Part shown: positions 48,230 to 62,421 of the stretch, piece after piece
Numbering within the stretch: position 1 is the stretch's first letter
How the letters are laid out: each line of letters begins with the position of its first letter
The notes under the pieces: model-generated
The model's input: the letters and a program-made list of their open reading frames with translations, nothing else
What the model was told of the DNA's origin: nothing
The model's database searches: none
Assembly: GCA_035084275.1 (NCBI GenBank)
Contig: CM068745.1
Span: forward strand, 21,142,001 to 21,206,000
Reading direction: 5' to 3'
Length of the DNA stretch: 64,000 nt
Origin: Hydrolagus colliei
Taxonomy: Eukaryota
Made by a program: the position numbers and the translations under genes

Positions 48230-49441
48230 GTAAGATCTGATTGATGAAGAAATTAACTTGAATATGCTTTCTCATTAATGCATTGCAAAGTATTCAGATT
48301 CTATTACGGAATTTATTTTCAGTCTACAAAGACAAAAGCGTAATTTTATTGATCGCAAGCTGAATTGTATTTATACACAATTTACTTTGATGTGTTGTCC
48401 TCTACTCAATTTATATGCAGCTAGAATTGCTGTGAATGCATCTCATACTATTAACGCAGGAATAATAATGAAAAAAAAGACTTAACCTTGAGGTAATTAG
48501 AGTGTTAAAGAGGGTGATTTAATGGGTTCACCTCATTATACTTATGATGTATCAATAAAAAGTACTAGGATTGAAGAATATGATCGTACATGATATATTG
48601 TAGTATTTAGAAAGTTCAATACTGCCATCGTGTGGTAACCTATGAAAAGTGCAATAAAGATGTTCCTCAGATTATTTGCCATTTTCTGATAGTACAGTAT
48701 GTTGTATTATGTTGAGACTCTTTGATTTTAGGGTTAAGTCTGTAATATCCAATAATTACCATTGAATTATGTATTACAAAATATGAGTTAAACACCAACT
48801 TCTAAAACCTCTTAAGCCATGCTTTGCTTTGTATGATTAGGAGGTGAGGTTTCCTCACTTTTAAAGACCATTACTCTCTTTGTTACTAGGTCACTTTGTT
48901 AGATTTTTGCATTTGTAATTTTAAGCAGTTTAACACTCCAACGGAGGAGTGAAACATGAAAGATGCAGCATGGAGTGAAGATGCTCTGGGTGAAATTCAT
49001 CCTTGCCATATGTTGTCTATCATCAAGATGTTTTTATTTCTAGGTTTCCAGTAGGGAATGGCGATTAATCGGTTTTTCGATTAAACCCGATATGATTTTC
49101 AGATCGGTATGCCGATATGGTGATTCTAAAAAAACTGTTATATCGAGAGATTCGATTTTAAAAATATACATCGATATATTTTTAATATCGTTCCTGGCAA
49201 TATATCAATATTGTTGGTATTATCAGTGTAATGCGATCTTTTCCAGCTTACCTTGTCGCCGGCATTGCAACCTCCTAGATCTAGAGCATGGAATGCGCGT
49301 ACGTTCGGTGCGCGCGCACAATTAACGGGCGCGCACATCCGATGCGCACGCACACTTTACTGTGTATACTCGACGTGAGTCGTGGCGTCTTAACAAAGTC
49401 GCATCGCTGAAATTGTAGTTTGAAAATTTACCTTTCTCATC

Positions 49442-49858
49442 ATGGGGAAAAGAAGCCCCGTATGGGACTACTTTGAAAACAATGCAGTCAGTAATGGTGT
49501 GTATAGATGTACAGTTTGCAAGGTCTTGGTTAAGACATCTGATTCGAGCACGAGCAACCTGCGACAACACATTAAGCAGCACCACCCCGCCCAGCACGCT
49601 GCCCTCAGAGCGAAATCATTGTCGACAACAGCAGGAAGTCGAACCAGCGCTTCGGAGAAAGCGACAGGTAGTGGGGCCAGTGCAGCTCAAACAATTCCTG
49701 CTTTATTTAAGAGGAGAACATTGTACCAGAGAGGGGACAAAAAGTGGCAAAGTATCACGAACGCTGTCACTTTTTGCATAGCAAAGGAGAGCTTGCCAAT
49801 GGCGAAGGACATTAATTCAGACTTCAGACTACATAAAAATAAGTGGCATTTTGTGGCT
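49442..49858 (+). CDS. Truncated hAT transposase N-terminus (BED finger), first 139 codons up to a putative GTAAGT donor; expression unknown
   Basis: MGKRSPVWDYF...CTVC...TSNLRQHIKQHH...IAKESLPM; the unspliced frame continues open into the purine tract. Confidence 0.7.
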
Positions 49859-50110: not shown

Positions 50111-51027
50111 AGAGATGGAGGGAGAGAAGGAGAGGGGGAAAGGAGGGAGAGAAAGAGAGAGGCGAGGGAGGGAGGGAGAGAAGGAGAGGGGGAAAGTTGG
50201 GAGAGAAGGAGAGAGGAAGAGGGAGGGAGAGAAGGAGAGGGTGAAAGGAGGGAGAGAAGGAGAGAGGAAGAGAGGAGAGGGAGGGAGAGAAGGAGAGGGG
50301 GAAAGGAGGGAGAGAAGGAGCGAGGGGAAAGGAGGGAGAGAAGGAGTGAGGGGAGGGAGGGAGAAAGTTGGGAGAGAAGGAGAGAGGAAGAGAGGAGAGG
50401 GAGGGAGAGAAGGAGAGGGGGAAAGGAGGGAGAGAAGGAGCGAGGGGAAAGGAGTGAGAGAAGGAGAGAGGAAGAGAGGAGAGGGAGGGAGGGAGAGAAG
50501 GAGAGGGGGAAAGGAGTGAGAGAAGGAGGGAGGGGAAAGGAGGGAGAGAAGGAGAGAGGGGAGGGAGGGAGAGGGGGAAAGTTGGGAGAGAAGGAGAGAG
50601 GAAGAGAGGAGAGGGAGGGAGAGAAGGAGAGGGGGAAAGGAGGGAGAGAAGGAGCGAGGGGAAAGGAGGGAGAGAAGGAGAGAGGGGAGGGAGGGAGAGG
50701 GGGAAAGAGGAAGAGAGGAGAGGGAGGGAGAGAAGGAGAGGGGGGANNNNNNNNNNNNNNNNNNNNNNNNNNNNNNNNNNNNNNNNNNNNNNNNNNNNNN
50801 NNNNNNNNNNNNNNNNNNNNNNNNNNNNNNNNNNNNNNNNNNNNNNNNNNNNNNNNNNNNNNNNNNNNNNNNNNNNNNNNNNNNNNNNNNNNNNNNNNNN
50901 NNNNNNNNNNNNNNNNAGGAGAGGGAGGGAGAGAAGGAGAGGGGAAAGTAGGGAGAGAAGGAGAGAGGAGAGGAGGGAGAGAAGGAGAGAGGAGAGGAGG
51001 GAGAGAAGGAGAGGGGGAGGTAGGGAG
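50111..51027. repeat. Polypurine minisatellite inside hAT copy 2, spanning an assembly gap
   Basis: Same units as 43373-44134 in a different order. Confidence 0.9.
50747..50916. other. Assembly gap (170 N)
   Basis: Run of n. Confidence 1.
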
Positions 51028-53579: not shown

Positions 53580-53797
53580 GCTGTTCAGGGCCGTGGAGGC
53601 GCTCTGCAAGAAAGAGATCTACGTGTTGATCTGGGATTCCGTGGAATGCCTATGACTGAGGAGCAACGTCGGCAATTTAGCCCAGGACCACGCACAACAA
53701 TGTTCCGCATCCCTGAATTCAAGTGGTCCACCATGCATCAGCGATTGCTGACAGATCTGCTGTTCGCTTTGGAAACTGATGTCCATGTTTGGAGAAG
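53580..53797 (+). CDS. NBEA: Neurobeachin internal coding exon (218 nt, phase 0-2)
   Basis: gatAG|GCT ... AG|GTgat; [72 protein letters not shown](S). Confidence 0.95.
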
Positions 53798-54343
53798 GTG
53801 ATGAAAATAATTTTATTTCATAACTATTTTTGGTGTGGTGGAGAAATCCTGAAGGAAGCAGTGAGTTATTGAATTATGTGATCAAAATAAATTTCTAATT
53901 TATTATTTATTGAACATTATATACAGTAAATTTAAAATTTACTTTGTCTAGAACTAAGGTAGGATTTATTCTCATTTGCAAACTTTGTTTTTCAAATGGT
54001 CACTAGGGGTCCTGTTTGCTTCATCTGGTTGAAACATGATGATGTCCTTACCGAAGATTAGCAAAACTGTGACAGCTTTGTTAATGTTTCAATCAATTCA
54101 GTGATGGTTCTTTTCACATTTGTTGCTTTTAAAGCAGTTGTAACTATTTTTTTTGTACTGGTTGTGATGAAGATTATCTAGCATTATTGGTTAGGTTAGA
54201 TGATAACTATCCTTATCGCTTCAACAAATTGTTGATTGTTTTACCATTTTGATTGCTGTCATTGTGATTATCATGGAATTTGTAATATATGTGAAACAAC
54301 AACAAAAATTACATTTGTAATATATGTGTTTGTGTCTCTGCAG

Positions 54344-54497
54344 CCATGCCACAAAGTCAGTGATGGATTTTGTGAACAGCAATGAAAATATTATTTTTGT
54401 GCACAATACAATTCATCTTATTTCTCAAATGGTGGACAACATTATCATTGCTTGTGGCGGAATCTTACCTTTGTTATCAGCAGCAACATCTCCTTCT
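54344..54497 (+). CDS. NBEA: Neurobeachin internal coding exon (154 nt, phase 2-0)
   Basis: ctgcAG|C ... TCT|GTgagt; [51 protein letters not shown]. Confidence 0.95.
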
Positions 54498-54726
54498 GTG
54501 AGTATGGAGCATAGCGCCGCCTTGTGTTGCTATCTGAAATTTCACATTATAAAACAAAATCCATAATATAACTAAATAATTCCAAACATCAAGAAATAAA
54601 AATAAGCCCTTTTCAATAGTTCACCAATACATCTTAAATAATCCAAATAAATTAACAACTTTATGTTGTGTACTTTAACATAGATTGAGCTTTATGCTTT
54701 AAATTTGAGTCCAAACCACATCATAG

Positions 54727-55056
54727 AACTGGATCCTAGATGACATGTTGGTAACAGAATGTCAGAATTGAACCAACTCTCTGTGACTGTCTCAGTAGTC
54801 CAGTTCCTGAGCCAGTTTCAGGGCCCTGCTGATGGCAGCTGACGCAGTATGGCTTATCAGCAGGACGTGGAATGGCAGACAAGTTACTGGAGCCAGACTG
54901 TTTCCCTCAGCTTCCATTAACCCAGCAAGGCAAAGCTTTAACTGAAAAGATGGTCCTTACAGGACAAGCAATAGCAAAGCATGCCAGACAGAACATTCAA
55001 TGGCAAACTGATTAGACTCCAGCTGTAACCCAACACATGCTCTGGGGTCCCTAAGC
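54727..55056 (-). repeat. Old unclassified interspersed repeat, inverted sister of 40826-41190
   Basis: gaatgtcagaat, gtccagttcctgagccag, ttagactccag blocks are reverse complements of the 40826 copy. Confidence 0.7.
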
Positions 55057-55397
55057 TTTGGCTTTTTCCCAACATCTGCCTCATACCTTCTTTCTTTATA
55101 ATTTTACATCAATAGATTCAGTAAAGGTAAAGATTGAGTGTAAAATAAGTCTGACGTATTTTAGAAATGGGTTTAGATTAACCTTTAACAAATATACTTC
55201 TCTTTTATTTATTACAAATTCTACAGTGAAATGTTAACTTGCCTTAGTATGTTAGGTAATTGTAAATATTTTTAACTGAACTTGATAAATAAGTATAATT
55301 TAAAATTATAATTCACAAAGTTTTTTCCTTCCTATTTATTAATTCTTACTTTTTTAACTTATATTTTTATTCTGTTTTTTTCATATTGCATGCCAAG

Positions 55398-55406
55398 GGT
55401 TCAAAG
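55398..55406 (+). CDS. NBEA: Neurobeachin 9-nt microexon encoding GSK (phase 0-0)
   Basis: Long T-rich tract, then ttgcatgccaAG|GGT TCA AAG|GTtagt. It supplies the GSK that I recall in mammalian NBEA between ...SAATSPT and TELENIE...; neither flanking exon encodes it. Confidence 0.8.
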
Positions 55407-56589
55407 GTTAGTATTTCTACTTTTTGAGTTTGACTTAATTTTCACATTTTGTGCTAAATCTCAACAAGGAAATAATGCTTAAATAAGGTGCACTGGTTAT
55501 AAATTGTCTTCTTTTAAAAGTAATTACTTTTGGTGTTTGTATTTGTATTCTACATTAATTTCAATACAAATGTAAAACATAGTAATTAATTTAGCACATT
55601 TTTCTGTAGTTTTTGAAAGCAAATATTGTAGCATATTGCTACAGGTGGAGCTCTCTTATTCCACCATTTCTTCTGACTCTATTTACAACATTAAGTTGTT
55701 TTTAAGAATCTGAAGAAGAAAAATCTGTACCAGAGTAATAAGAGAAAATGTGCTAAAGAGCTCTATCATAAAATCTATCTTTTAATGATTGTAGAACATG
55801 TGCACCATTTGTGCATAGTCTGCTTATGGTAAAACTCTGACTGCTAAACCATGTGATTCATGCTTCATCGCTAGGCTTTGAAATTTGACTATTAAAGATA
55901 TTCAAACTTGTTAAAATCAAAATATAAAATATTTTGCTTTGCAGTTAAAATAAAAGGGCTGAAAAGGGGGAACATTGTATCAAATCTGTTAAATATAGAA
56001 AGCAATGTTAAAATGTACCAAGTAAGAATTGCATAGCATTTAGTTTATATGAAAAAGAATGTGAGTTAGCACATTTGGGTATGTAAACCTAGGTTTAGTG
56101 ATATTGAATCCAACTGAATAGTGGGTATTTGATATTCTGCAACAAAAATAGGCTGATTGTAAAATGGGCCCTTTTTGTATATGATGTACAGACGTTCTTT
56201 ATCAACTGTAATAATCACGTGTACAAAATATTATCTTCAAAAGACTATCAGAGTGGATTCTAGAGCCCCAGTTGACAATGGGAGACTCCACAGCCCTGGC
56301 AAATCACTTGTAAGTTCAGCAAAGATCTATGTTGTCTGCATATATTAAATAAAATAACCATTAGAAATTGGAGTGATATTTGTGTTTTACATGTGTAGTT
56401 TCTAGCATCAGCTAAATGTCTTGACTGTAATTGAACAATGATTTTGATATTTTTATAAATAAACTAAAAATAGAAATATAACATACCATTCCAAATGTAT
56501 CTTGCACACTTGTATTAAAATTGTATGTACAATATCCTAAGGACAAACATATGACATGATATGGGTATTTTACCTGTGTTTTTTAAAAG

Positions 56590-56770
56590 ACTGAGCTGGA
56601 AAATATTGAGGCAACCCAAGGCATGTCAACAGAGACAGCAGTAACGTTCCTAAACAGGCTGATGGCCATGGTTGATGTGCTGGTTTTCTCAAGCTCACTC
56701 AATTTCAGTGAGATTGAAGCAGAAAAGAACATGTCATCTGGAGGCTTAATGCGTCAATGCCTGAGGCTCG
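56590..56770 (+). CDS. NBEA: Neurobeachin internal coding exon (181 nt, phase 0-1); last exon recognised in the window
   Basis: ttttaaaAG|ACT ... G|GTgagt; [60 protein letters not shown]. Confidence 0.95.
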
Positions 56771-56989
56771 GTGAGTACAAATATTATGCTATAGTTTTTG
56801 TATTTATGTCTGTCCATAGCAACACTTCAATTCTTCAATGAGTATGTCTATGTTCAATGCACAACTTAATATTCAACAAGAGCAACTTGCATTTATATAA
56901 CACCCTTCACATGGGTAGTTTCTCGGAATACACTTGTGGAGCTTGATGCCAAACCGGGGAAATGAGTTAGGTGACTGTAGACATAGTCA

Positions 56990-58240
56990 AACAACAACAA
57001 CAACAACAACTTGGATTTATATAGCACCCTCCATGCTGGACAGCATCTCAGAGCACTTCCCATTAACGGATCCCAGGGCTGAGTCAGTGGGAAGGGGAAG
57101 AAGGTGACCGAATGCGGAAGATGGAAGAAAGCAATGCTGGTGAGGAAAAAGAAAGGTCTTTAGCCAAGACCTGAAAGTAGGAAGAGGGGTCGAGGTGAAG
57201 GGAGTGAGGAAGGGAGTTCCAGAGCCTTGGGGCGTAGTGGGTGAAGGCACGGCCGCCGATGGTAGAGTAGAGGATTTGGAAGACGAGGAGGAAGCAGATC
57301 CGGTGGAACGAAGGCAACGGGTACTGTTGTGAGGAGAGAGGAGGTCAGAGAGATAAGAGGGTGGAGGAGTGGAGAGATTTTAAAACAAGAGTGAGGATCT
57401 TGAAATCGATCCTCTCTGGGACAGGGAGCCAGTGCAAGTCTGGCAAGGACTAGGGTAATCGGGGAGCAGAGTTTGGTATGGGTAAGAATGCAGGCAGCAG
57501 AATTCTGGATGACCTGGATTTTATGAATGGAGTGGAGGAGAGACCGGTGAGGAGGGCATTTGAATAGTCCAGCAGAGAGGTGACAAAGGCATGGACCAGG
57601 GTTTCAGCGGCTTTTGGGGTGAGATATTGCCAGAGACGGGTGAAGCGTCGGAGATGGAAGAAAGCGGTGCTGGTGAGGGACTGGATTTGGTGGTGGAAGG
57701 ATAAGTGGAGGTCGAACCTGACGCCTAGGTTGCTTATGGGTTTGGGGAGTTTTAGGGGCAAGTTGGGTAGGTGGAGGAGGTGATGAATCTGTGGCAAAAT
57801 CGAAAGATCTTCAGAAGTAATCTGTAGTCTGGCAAGGAGAGACTAATGCAGAGGGATTGGAGCAGAGAGTTCTAGAGTTTTGGGGCAAATTGATGAAAGC
57901 GCTGCTGCAGATGGTGAAGTGGAAGGAACGAGGGATAAAGCCAGCCAGAGGGTCAAGATGGTCAGAGCCAGGTGAGCAAAAGGGGTGGGTAATGTAGTGA
58001 GGTAAGCATGTTGGAGAGCTAGAGGTGCTAGGGCGTGAACTGATTTTTAAATAAATGTACGGATCTTGAAATTGATCCATTGTGTAGCAGGAAGGCTGGT
58101 TAGTAGATCCTAGCAAGGATTGGAATGATGGGGTGGAGAGTTTGGTACATGGGTGGATGAGGTTCGAGTCAGTTGAAAAGTGGAGTTGGGAAGACTGGCA
58201 AGGAGGTCATTGGAAAAATTGAGGTGGGAGGTAATGAATG
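56990..58240 (-). mobile_element. L2 remnant (3' end plus internally deleted upstream part)
   Basis: (aac)n tail at 56990; [12 protein letters not shown]...[20 protein letters not shown] in ORF 57450..57797. Confidence 0.85.
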
Positions 58241-58489
58241 GATATATAAGTCTTTAATGCTTTCACCAGGTATTTTGAAAGTGAACTGTAAAGGGAAACA
58301 GTTTTCATATATATAATTAATATGAATATAAATAATGTGCAAATACAATACATAATTTCAGTAAGAGGGTAGCTGGGGAGACGTTAAAACACTAAGGAAC
58401 TTGAAGGGAGTTGGAAAAGAGAATGACCAGATGGCATCAAGTTGAACTGTGGAATAATTGAATGCAGAAAAGTATTAACATTGAGAGCT

Positions 58490-58830
58490 TTTAGCGTATG
58501 TACACGGGCTGATGATTGGCAAATACAGTTCAATGCATGGAAATGCCTGCAGGAAGTAAGAATAGGAAACACATGTATTGCATGGATGGGATAGAATTTC
58601 CCATGGGGGAAGCTGAAAGAGATCTAGGGATGTTAGTTGACTCATCACTCACCATGTCAAACAGTGTGAGGCAGGAATAAACAAGGCAAACAATATGCTG
58701 GGCTACATTGCCCAATCAGTTAAATTCAGATTGCTAGACATCAAACTCAAGCTATATCGTGCTCTGGCCAGGTTGCACCTGGATTCACGCTCACAGTGTT
58801 CCAGGCCATTTACAAAATCCAGAATCACGT
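58490..58830 (+). mobile_element. Old CR1 RT C-terminal fragment
   Basis: ADDWQIQFNAWKC, ERDLGMLVDSSL, KANNMLGYI peptides. Confidence 0.7.
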
Positions 58831-59035
58831 AGTGAGATGAATCTGTGGCAAATACAGAAAGAAGCTAGAGGGAGGGAGGGCAGGCGGGTGGGCTCCGGCC
58901 TACAGTGACCTGTCACTGAGGCCCCAAAGGTGGAGTTAGCTTCACAACAGATATGTCTGTTTGTCATCTCCTCACAGGAGCACCTGGATAAACACCTGGT
59001 GTTGAGTAAGCCTGGTACACGGTAGCCTGGTACAC

Positions 59036-59742
59036 GTGGAGCTCCTGTAGCTCAGTGGTTAGAGCGCTCGCCTTACAAGTGTGAGATCTGTGTTCAAATC
59101 CAGGTAGAGTCCTTGGGCAAGTTTCCTTACTCCACACACCTAATAATAATCCGTTCCAAAAAAAAACCACAATAATAAATATTGGTCATTTTCAATCCAC
59201 AACTGTTTGTGGGTCACTGCTGTGTGCAATTGGCTGCTCATTTTTGCTCACAAATATAGTCAATTCACTTTACAGTATACAGTACAGTAACACCTTTGTT
59301 ATCCAGCACGTTCAGGACCTGACCAGTGTCGATTACTCAAATATGCCAGATATTCGAGTGGCAAGTTGCCGAAAATCATACCATATTAATAATAGACTAA
59401 ATAATAATAGAATATTGTATGGATACTTACCAATAAAGCATTCCAGCACACTCGGTAAAATGATCGATAAAAAAGAATTCCAGCGTTCAGTAAGTTTAAT
59501 AAGTGCGCATGCGCCTGATGCACAAAGTGAGCATACCGTGAGTGTCCCGGATGGCTATGGTATGAGATCCGGTTGCTGGAATGGTGAATTGTATTGGGAG
59601 ATACCGGTTGGTTGAGTATGCCAATTGGTTGGGTACCGGATAAACAAGGTTTTACTGTATTTTGTGAAGCTCTTTGAGACGTTGATAAGTTGTGAAAAGA
59701 GCTTCATCAAATGCAAGGATTATTATTATTATTATTATTATT
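59036..59742 (+). mobile_element. Full-length tRNA-derived SINE split by a Tigger-like MITE
   Basis: gtggagctcctgtagctcagtggttagagcg head; body resumes ttttgtgaagctctttgagacg after 59659; (att)n tail. Confidence 0.88.
59285..59657. mobile_element. Tigger/pogo-like MITE (373 bp)
   Basis: TA|CAGTAACACCTTTGTTATCC ... GGATAAACAAGGTTTTACTG|TA; termini related to the 38697/41987 family. Confidence 0.85.
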
Positions 59743-60807
59743 GGACTTGGACCTTGACCACATCAAAATGGCTGGCATGTCATTAGCTGTCTGTAACAGT
59801 CCTCCCGCCATGCTGACAGCAGATGTCTTTTAGATATCTAATGACAAAACTCTAAGTCTTGTGGCAACAGCTGTTGGACAGCGTTACCTGAAGTCTGAGC
59901 TTGTGAACATGTGTTCATACATCAAGCGCTTGGAACCCACTTGGGTTGGTTTGCAGAGAGGTAAGCAAGTACTGCTTATGCTCCACATCTTCAACAAGAA
60001 CCATATTCAGCGTAAATTAATGTGTGTCCAAGCAGTGAGCGGGACGCTGTTGGCAACACTCTTACGCATTTCATGCTGTGCTCCTGGTAACTGCCATCCA
60101 CTAGTAAGGGCAAACGAACAACTCTTGATTTTCCTCCTTGAATTCCAAAACCTAACTATTTATGTGAAAAAAAATTATCCTAACCTCAATACGGATTCCT
60201 CTCATTCAATTCCAGATAATTCTGCAAGTCGAAGTCCTAATGGATATAGTGTTGCTAAGCTGGACACACAGTGGGGCGGTTACCAGACAATTCTTCCAAT
60301 GATAAGCAATGCAGTTTTAGCTGGTTAAATTCCAGCAGTCCTCCAACATATACTGTAGCCAACCTGTGTCTAATACTCTTTATAATAATGTTCCATCAGG
60401 GAAATTGTGCATTCCATTCCGGACACAGGGAAATTTTCATGCATGTGGCACTCTGTCGTGTTTGAATACTCTTAAGCATGGTGATGGATTTCCGCATGTG
60501 TTAGCACCTGGCTAACCCCAAAAAAATCCAAGTACAGTATAAATAACCACTGCAGCCATATCTTGCTTTGTTTGGTTGAATCACAGTAATGCGTGTCTCG
60601 ATTGGTGTATCAGCATAGAATGGTAGATGAGCTAATGCAATTCCACCAGAGGATGGAGCTACAGCTTTGAAACCTTACCAGTTCCCATCTTGTATAATAT
60701 GTCCTCTTTTGCCACAAAACAATAAAAATAGGGGATTTTAAAACTACATTTCATAAAGATACAATAATAATTGTTAGGATTTTATAATAATGATGCTTGC
60801 ATTTGAT

Positions 60808-62421
60808 GAGGGAAATGTGGTGGACGTTATTTACATGGATTTCAAAAAGGCTTTTGACACAGTACCGCATAAGAGATTAATAAAAAAAATTAGAGGCCCA
60901 CGGTATTAAGGGGATAGTGGCAGTTTGGATTAAAAAATGGCTGAGTGACAGAAAGCAGAGGGTGGTGGTTAATGGGTGTTTCTCGAAATGGAAGGAGGTG
61001 TGCAGTTATGTCCCCCAGGGATCGGTATTGGGACCACTGCTCTTTCTAATATATATTAATGATCTGGACTTGGGCATAGAGAGCACTATTTCCAAGTTTG
61101 CAGATGATACAAAATTAGGTAGAGTAGCAAATAGTGAGGAGGATTGTAACCAACTGCAAGCAGACATACACAGAATGGTGGAATGGGCTGACATGTGGCA
61201 AATGGATTTCAATATGGATAAGTGTGAGGTGATACACTTAGGTAGGAAAAATTATAGGAGGCAATATAGACATGGTAGATAAGGCAGTAAAAAAGGCATT
61301 TGGTGTACTAAGCTTCATTAGTAGGGGCATAGATTATAAGAGTAGGGAGGTTATGGTTAATCTATACAAAACACTGGTTAGGCCTCAACTGGAGTACTGC
61401 GTCCAGTTCTGGACACCTTACTTCAGGAAATACATTAAAGCACTGGGGAAGGTGCAGAGGAGATTCACGAGAATGATACCAGGAATGCGGAACCTTAGCT
61501 ATGAGGACAGGCTGGAGAAGTTAGGACTTTTCCCATTAGAGCAGAGAAGGTTACGCAGGGACCTGTTAGAGGTCTTCAAGATCATGAAAGGGTTTGACAG
61601 ACTAGATAGGGAAAAGCTGGTAGGTGTGTTCGGAATGGAATGCAATACTCACCCGCTCTAAGCTTCGCTCCCCCATTACCCCAGTCCTTGCCAGACTTCA
61701 CTGGCTCCCTATCCCAGAGAGGATCGACTTCAAGATCCTCGCCCTTGTTTTCAAATCCCTCCACTCCTCTGCACCCCCCTATCTCTCTGATCTCCTCTCC
61801 CCCCAACCCAGCACCCGCTGCCTTCACTCCTCTGGGTCTGGCCTCCTCCATGTCCCCTGAGTCCTCCGCTCCACCCTCGGCGGCCGTGCCTTTAGCCACT
61901 ATGCCCCGAGGCTCTGGAACTCCCTTCCTCACTCGCTTCGCCTCGCCCCCTCTCTTCCCAGTTTCAGGTCACAGTTCAAGAGCTTTCTCTTCGACCGAGC
62001 TTTTAGTCACCTTCCTGCCCCTGCCCCTGGATCGGTCCCGGGATCCGCTACTGTGAAGCGCTCTGAGACGCCGTCTGGCATGGATGGCGCTATATAAATC
62101 GAAGTTGTTGTTGTTGTTGTGACCCCATGGTCACAGTCTTAAGATATCTACCAAAAGAAGCAGAGGGGAGGTTAGAAGAAATTTTTTTACTCAGCGAGTT
62201 GTTCGAATTTGGAATGATCTGCCTGAAAGGGTAGTGAGGTCCGATTCGATAACAGCTTTTAAGAGAGAACTAGATAGGTATCTGGGGAAGACGGGTTTGC
62301 AGGGTTATGTGGAGAAAGCTGGTGATTGGGCTTAATGAAAGTGACTTGCTTGGTCAAAGATTCGGCACAGACTCGATGGGCCGAATGGCCTCCTTCTGTG
62401 CCATAACATTCTATGATTCTA
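60808..62421 (+). mobile_element. 5'-truncated CR1 inserted into a minus-strand SINE (60784-60807 plus 62426-62525)
   Basis: [47 protein letters not shown]; (ttctatga)n tail; TGAT at both junctions; host rejoins as cttgcatttgat|atagcacttttca. Confidence 0.92.
61645..62120 (+). mobile_element. L2 3' fragment inserted into CR1
   Basis: PITPVLARLHWLPIPERIDFKIL peptide; (ttg)n tail; CR1 resumes at gaccccatggtcacagtc. Confidence 0.9.

Follow-up and report, generated by a model that had tools for sequence, protein, structure and literature searches.

A spliced 9-nt exon in the neurobeachin gene of a chimaera and its likely neuron-raised inclusion

Does the intron between two coding exons of a chimaera gene hold a nine-nucleotide exon, and, if it does, is that exon switched on in neurons only? 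The question is raised by a stretch of 64,000 nt of Hydrolagus colliei DNA (assembly GCA_035084275.1, contig CM068745.1, positions 21,142,001 to 21,206,000; hereafter the window, with positions counted from its first letter), in which an earlier note made from the sequence alone had proposed an ancient, neuron-specific microexon of neurobeachin, marked by SRRM3/SRRM4 and RBFOX motifs and likely to be missed by gene predictors.

The gene, its exons and the transcript evidence

The exon at 56590 matches neurobeachin proteins (255 matches among 276 candidates, the best 120 of which are listed), and the pieces of one of them, the Callorhinchus milii NBEA model P0133, run collinearly along the window in 18 tblastn alignments. 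The window's variable exon of 340 aa is 95.6% identical to P0133 and 71.9% identical to the Scyliorhinus canicula protein by tblastn, and the 181-nt exon downstream of the microexon is 100% identical to shark and chimaera NBEA proteins. The Pfam domains of P0133 follow the order DUF4704, DUF1088, PH, BEACH and WD40; judged by its best protein matches and this domain order, the gene is neurobeachin (NBEA) and not LRBA. Residues 1338-1340 of P0133 correspond to the microexon and lie between DUF4704 (393-872) and DUF1088 (1868-2034), outside the Pfam matches. The features of this part of the gene are collected in Table 1.

Table 1. Features around the NBEA microexon, in window coordinates
Feature	Position	Strand	Basis and remarks
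Joint into the 154-nt upstream exon	53795-54342, cut +2	+	spliced contigs
NBEA coding exon upstream of the microexon, 154 nt	54344..54497	+	ends ...SAATSPS, phase 0, donor GTGAGT; tblastn
AG-free T-rich 3' splice-site region, 75 nt	55321..55395	+	sequence scan
Branch-point-like motifs (pattern match only)	starts 55339, 55354	+	sequence scan
TGC pair at -11 and -7, the first within TGCATG (55387-92)	55387..55393	+	sequence; putative function after the available parts of PMC4387716 and bioRxiv 2024.09.17.613571
Microexon acceptor AG	55396..55397	+	sequence
9-nt microexon, Gly-Ser-Lys (GSK)	55398..55406	+	sequence; spliced joints in 3/3 RNA-type runs; same residues in P0133
Microexon donor GTTAGT	55407..55412	+	sequence
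Intronic 15 nt reading VSIST	55407..55423	+	resembles the extra 5 residues of bony vertebrates; TT at 55422-23
Second in-frame exon, 66 nt / 22 aa	56244..56309	+	AG 56242-43, donor GTAAGT; GT..AG joint 56309-56590 in 3/3 RNA-type runs
NBEA coding exon downstream, 181 nt	56590..56770	+	starts TELENIE, phase 0

Of five runs listed, four (X2 to X5) were used. Transcript evidence comes from three of them, all of one study (X2, X3 and X4), unlabelled as to tissue and derived from a relative about 95% alike (51-52 differences from the window in 1020 nt); their type was guessed to be RNA, and their GT..AG joints indicate that the sequence is spliced. In all three, 54498 is joined to 56240 with four extra letters in between, and these four, together with the one letter that fits the donor G at 54498 and the four that fit the acceptor at 56240-43, are exactly the nine letters of the microexon. 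One X2 contig of 8218 nt spans all five exon pieces. The microexon joint is absent from X5, a near-identical run that behaves like DNA. The earlier note had allowed that no reads might include the nine bases; they are spliced in all three RNA-type runs of the relative, and the 9-nt exon is real. Of 23 joints, 15 are shown, and none of these skips the microexon, contigs showing presence only. These transcripts do not join the microexon to 56590, the next exon that the earlier note implied, but to the 66-nt exon, which its reading had overlooked.

It is important to consider that the nine letters in the transcripts could have been supplied by an alternative splice site of a flanking exon, the intronic match being due to chance. 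Such an origin could draw on the resemblance between the microexon and the nine bases that precede the 66-nt exon (56235-43), and on the fact that the RNA is from another species; however, those nine bases differ from the transcript letters and have no AG before them, read-through at the upstream donor would give VS instead of GS, rays and mammals have proteins with GSK that lack the 22-aa exon, and the intronic copy has both splice sites. This origin, which the earlier note had itself named as a possible objection, is largely refuted, and we regard it as extremely improbable.

The sequence surrounding the exons was described in the earlier note as free of recognisable young repeats, a statement that is not exact: high-copy sequence occupies 54672-55172, where the depth of the DNA run reaches 3177 (54672-54838) and 471-545 (54839-55172) as against about 40-62 in unique parts. 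By contig depth, dispersed high-copy repeats lie in the flanking introns at 54672-55172 and 56843-57000, and the listed repeat pieces show 2-10 differences in 64-68 letters. Farther away, the start of a long frame at 49424-49700 reads like a BED-type zinc-finger fragment, which we take to be from a DNA transposon, and is followed by a GA-rich simple repeat and then by a run of N near 50800-50960; several short frames on both strands at 57000-62300 resemble decayed pieces of LINE reverse transcriptase.

Splice signals of the microexon

The splice signals were described correctly in the earlier note. The AG, the nine letters for GSK and the GTTAGT donor are all in place, the T-rich region announced as about 70 nt is free of AG for 75 nt and holds 45 T in the 74 nt counted, and both TGC motifs are present, at 55387 and 55391, the first within TGCATG. 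The exon falls within the 3-27 nt size range of microexons, has a canonical AG and GT (55407-08) and preserves the frame, since it is 9 nt long and since phase 0 is found at the end of the exon at 54497 and at the starts of the 66-nt and 181-nt exons. TGC at -11 and -7 also places the motif between the pyrimidine tract and the AG, at the end of a long AG-free zone; of the upstream UCU/CUC half of the bipartite enhancer, TCT occurs at 55344 and 55371 and CTC is absent. No informative repeats or base pairing were found around the microexon.

How readily such a constellation arises by chance was estimated in three ways. An AG-free zone of this length is matched by 61 of the 4212 AG gaps in the window. 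A strict filter (an AG, 3n nt with no stop, a donor with at least 5/6 consensus letters, at least 40 nt free of AG, a TGC and 70% pyrimidine) kept a single candidate among 1624 on the + strand, namely 55398-55406, and none among 1362 on the - strand, and when the 2092-nt interval was simulated 2000 times with an order-2 Markov model, a single simulation passed it; these figures overstate the rarity, because the filter was designed with the features already known. By itself TGC is weak, as it occurs within 14 nt upstream of 639 of the 4212 AGs (15%), and given this frequency and the way the filter was built, the argument from motifs is suggestive only.

A longer, 24-nt form of the exon was considered for the window and ruled out: neither GT nor GC stands at +24, and a stop precedes the GT at +30. 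At the +15 donor position the letters are TT instead of the canonical GT, and so the window has no canonical 24-nt form.

Linker forms across orthologs

The cartilaginous set comprised 86 entries from 21 named species and one further, all of them gene models retrieved by a search that favoured proteins with the 22-aa exon. Linkers of no residues, 3 aa, 22 aa and 3+22 aa all occur among these entries: a 3-residue form (GSK, SSK, GGK or GEK) is present in 13 of the 21 named species, while 7 have only models without it and 1 is uninformative, and an exon of 21-22 residues is present in 14 species. In C. milii, 2 of 8 entries carry both exons, identical to those of the window, and two entries have no linker; in Amblyraja, five models have GSK and one does not. 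The 8-residue form was found in none of the 86 entries.

Bony vertebrates have no linker, GSK or an 8-residue form, examples of the latter being GSKVSIAA (paddlefish, ostrich), GSKVSITD and GSKVSISD (frogs) and SSKVSANP (otophysans). Judging from the protein models, the 8-residue form would result from a donor shifted 15 nt downstream. The VSIST that can be read after the window's donor closely resembles the extension VSIAA/VSITD/VSISA that bony vertebrates have. Among all proteins compared, 259 of 320 had both flanks, and their linkers consisted of no residues in 64, three residues in 22, eight in 40, the 22-aa exon alone in 37, the microexon plus more in 67 and other forms in 29. Rat and mouse lemur models have GSK at this junction, and in the isoform pairs of mouse lemur and Logan the difference is exactly GSK. 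Among the 38 NBEA isoform pairs compared, no other 3-residue difference is clean, two Callorhinchus pairs being too noisy to read.

The occurrence of 3-residue forms from chimaera to rat bears out the proposal that the microexon is ancient; being spliced in chimaeras, it likely dates to the first jawed vertebrates. That gene predictors would miss it was only half right: the models of 7 of the 20 informative cartilaginous species lack it, but the C. milii RefSeq model has it. It is very likely that the event has already been catalogued in mouse, human and zebrafish, and both exons are present in the C. milii gene model. Other small differences between NBEA isoforms lie 3' of the part of the gene matched in the window, namely 2 aa (TG), 5 aa (CFLPQ), 1 aa (Q), 6 aa and 11 aa, and are likely to be more microexons or shifted splice sites. 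The gain and change of exons by lineage in the NBEA linker is a side lead of our study.

Orthologs hold from 0 to 45 residues in the linker, and the invariant alignment columns break off at S126 and begin again at E155, as would be expected of a flexible linker; the effect on the protein is likely to be small and local. A predicted fold of 241 aa around the linker rendered it as a coil between two helices, with a mean pLDDT of 39.4 and a pTM of 0.28, too weak to use, and the solved structures found cover the PH-BEACH part and WD40-like stretches and none covers the linker region.

All 22 residues of the 66-nt exon are as in P0133, and 18-19 of 22 are shared with five shark and ray models; the exon was not seen in the bony-vertebrate models compared, amniotes included. 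Ray-finned fishes have an insert of 23-38 aa at the same position in the linker. Homology between this insert and the 22-aa exon was detected in 0 of 10 comparisons (shuffle p 0.10-0.92), a weak test, as only 2 of 8 ray-finned inserts reached p<0.05 against that of sturgeon. Four models from sharks and rays, each about 1520 aa long (P0243, P0249, P0250 and P0253), start in or just before the 22-aa exon and give a hint of an internal start that would yield a C-terminal isoform. Where three of these four models have M, the window reads V. The X3 and X4 contigs break at 56240, as would fit a second entry (an unspliced intron or another start). A literature search for a short neurobeachin isoform with an alternative promoter found none.

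Graded or neuron-only inclusion, and comparison with known systems

Evidence on regulation comes from likely orthologs, as given in published tables and in the available parts of the papers cited. Nbea is named among the genes with nSR100-regulated microexons in PMC4387716, where its 9-nt mouse exon MmuEX0030987 has a PSI of 65.9-74.3 in wild-type brain versus 36.2-41.4 in Srrm4 knockout brain (dPSI -31.6), and a review counts NBEA among nSR100-dependent transcripts and among those with aberrant microexons in autism (PMC7545264). The zebrafish nbeaa exon DreEX0049383 has 24 nt, a neural dPSI of +67.7 and a PSI of 32-59 from 2 hpf to the dome stage, before neural development, and of 81-90 from 72 hpf; its srrm3/4 dPSI, the lowest of three mutant comparisons, is -6.3, and the paper's cut-off is -15 (PMC12626424). 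The same source gives HsaEX0041810 as the human ortholog, with a neural dPSI of +49.5. In PMC7935315 the PSI of HsaEX0041810 is 54.8 in neural progenitors and 73.5 in neurons, and, with inactive versus active SRRM4, 64.6 versus 80.5 in MCF7 breast-cancer cells (+15.9) and 50.7 versus 56.2 in SH-SY5Y (+5.5). The searched supplements of PMC12626420, PMC12868881 and PMC4317164 have no NBEA rows, and a topic search found no literature on a conserved zebrafish nbeaa microexon.

These three catalogued exons are likely orthologs of the GSK exon, matched by gene, length and intron size and not by sequence. The mouse exon is linked to GSK by its gene, by its 9-nt length and by the lack of any other clean 3-residue difference in the isoform pairs; the zebrafish exon by its gene, by its 24-nt length and by an upstream intron of 909 nt, compared with 900 in the window; and the human exon through the ortholog column.

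The claim of a neuron-specific switch is not supported by this comparison. A strict switch, dependent on SRRM3/4 and with near-zero inclusion outside neurons, would agree with the full cis signature, with the mouse Srrm4 dependence (PMC4387716), the remainder of which Srrm3 may cover, and with a window that offers only the short 9-nt form, given that shorter exons lean more on SRRM4 in the available part of bioRxiv 10.1101/2024.09.17.613571. We nevertheless judge it improbable, as the published tables show no near-zero inclusion outside neurons: the likely human ortholog is included at 51-65% in lines with inactive SRRM4 (PMC7935315), and at a PSI of 54.8 in neural progenitors, the zebrafish one is included at 32-59% in pre-neural embryos (PMC12626424), and the microexon is included in each of the three tissue-unlabelled RNA-type runs. 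Control by SRRM3/4 is supported in part, through the partial Srrm4 dependence of the likely mouse ortholog; strict control is not supported, the zebrafish value falling short of the cut-off.

Upstream RBFOX sites tend to repress. The link to RBFOX suggested in the earlier note could not be upheld, since within 54300-56800 the single TGCATG lies upstream of the microexon, inside its 3' splice site, and none lies in the downstream intron, as an RBFOX-enhanced micro-exon would have it; the enrichment of the RBFOX motif reported by Li et al., in the part of PMC4317164 available, is downstream of micro-exons.

At the other extreme, the exon could be constitutive or SRRM3/4-independent in chimaeras, its UGCs being incidental or serving RBFOX or another factor. 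The inclusion joint alone is listed in all three runs, but contigs drop minor forms, and among the gene models two C. milii entries lack the linker and Amblyraja has both forms; the zebrafish counterpart is nearly srrm3/4-independent (PMC12626424), but the mouse exon depends on Srrm4 (PMC4387716); and the frequency of TGC before the window's AGs is set against UGCs at -11 and -7 and a long zone free of AG, which is the described architecture. We consider a constitutive or SRRM3/4-independent exon quite improbable.

Taken together, we hold with good confidence that the window contains a spliced 9-nt NBEA exon adding Gly-Ser-Lys, the likely ortholog of a catalogued vertebrate microexon, and that it is likely included more in neurons, in part through SRRM3/4, without being confined to them. 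With its pyrimidine tract and branch point far from the AG, the 3' splice site would be weak and the exon poorly defined alone; SRRM3/4 bound at the UGC pair may help early spliceosome recruitment and so raise inclusion in neurons, while substantial basal inclusion would persist without them. The three residues would lengthen a length-tolerant linker between two conserved blocks, with a probable effect on local flexibility or on a binding surface and not on the fold.

A broader reading, which we offer tentatively and consider unlikely as it stands, sees the linker as a hot spot of splicing, the regulation of which shifted with the length of the exon. On this view, cartilaginous fishes would have a 9-nt-only, SRRM3/4-sensitive microexon together with a 66-nt exon of their own, at which a short C-terminal isoform may also begin; bony vertebrates would have gained a second donor, placed 15 nt farther on; and the zebrafish exon, in its 24-nt form, would have escaped SRRM3/4 control while staying neural. 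If true, the hot spot would offer a test in nature of the length-sensitivity rule derived from minigenes, in which lengthening gives SRRM4-independent inclusion for some microexons (available part of bioRxiv 10.1101/2024.09.17.613571). The conservation of such exons from shark to mammals has already been reported in general, and our results change no view; what they add is comparative only, namely 9-nt and 24-nt forms with different reported dependence on SRRM3/4 and a cartilaginous exon of 22 residues.

Among the closest known systems is the C. milii RefSeq model XP_007889506.1 (P0133), whose 25-residue linker equals the window's microexon plus its 66-nt exon, residue for residue, although it belongs to a different chimaera-like species and, as a predicted model, is silent on regulation. 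Mouse MmuEX0030987 shares the gene and the 9-nt length, whereas the 66-nt exon that follows the microexon here is in none of the amniote models compared. Zebrafish DreEX0049383 and human HsaEX0041810 are neural-enriched NBEA microexons; the 24 nt of the former fit the 8-aa teleost linker, and it differs from the window's exon in being barely srrm3/4-dependent and in having a length for which the window lacks the GT. The SRRM3/SRRM4 (nSR100, eMIC-domain) programme, in the available parts of PMC4387716 and bioRxiv 10.1101/2024.09.17.613571, resembles the window in its frame-preserving exons of 3-27 nt, its displaced pyrimidine tract, its UGC near the AG (in the latter source, 74-79% of dependent microexons have one close to the 3' splice site) and its responses conserved from shark to mammals. 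NBEA is absent from the main text of the bioRxiv source, as far as that text was available, and the LS and HS classes defined there have a PSI near 0 without SRRM4, whereas the NBEA orthologs keep a high basal inclusion.
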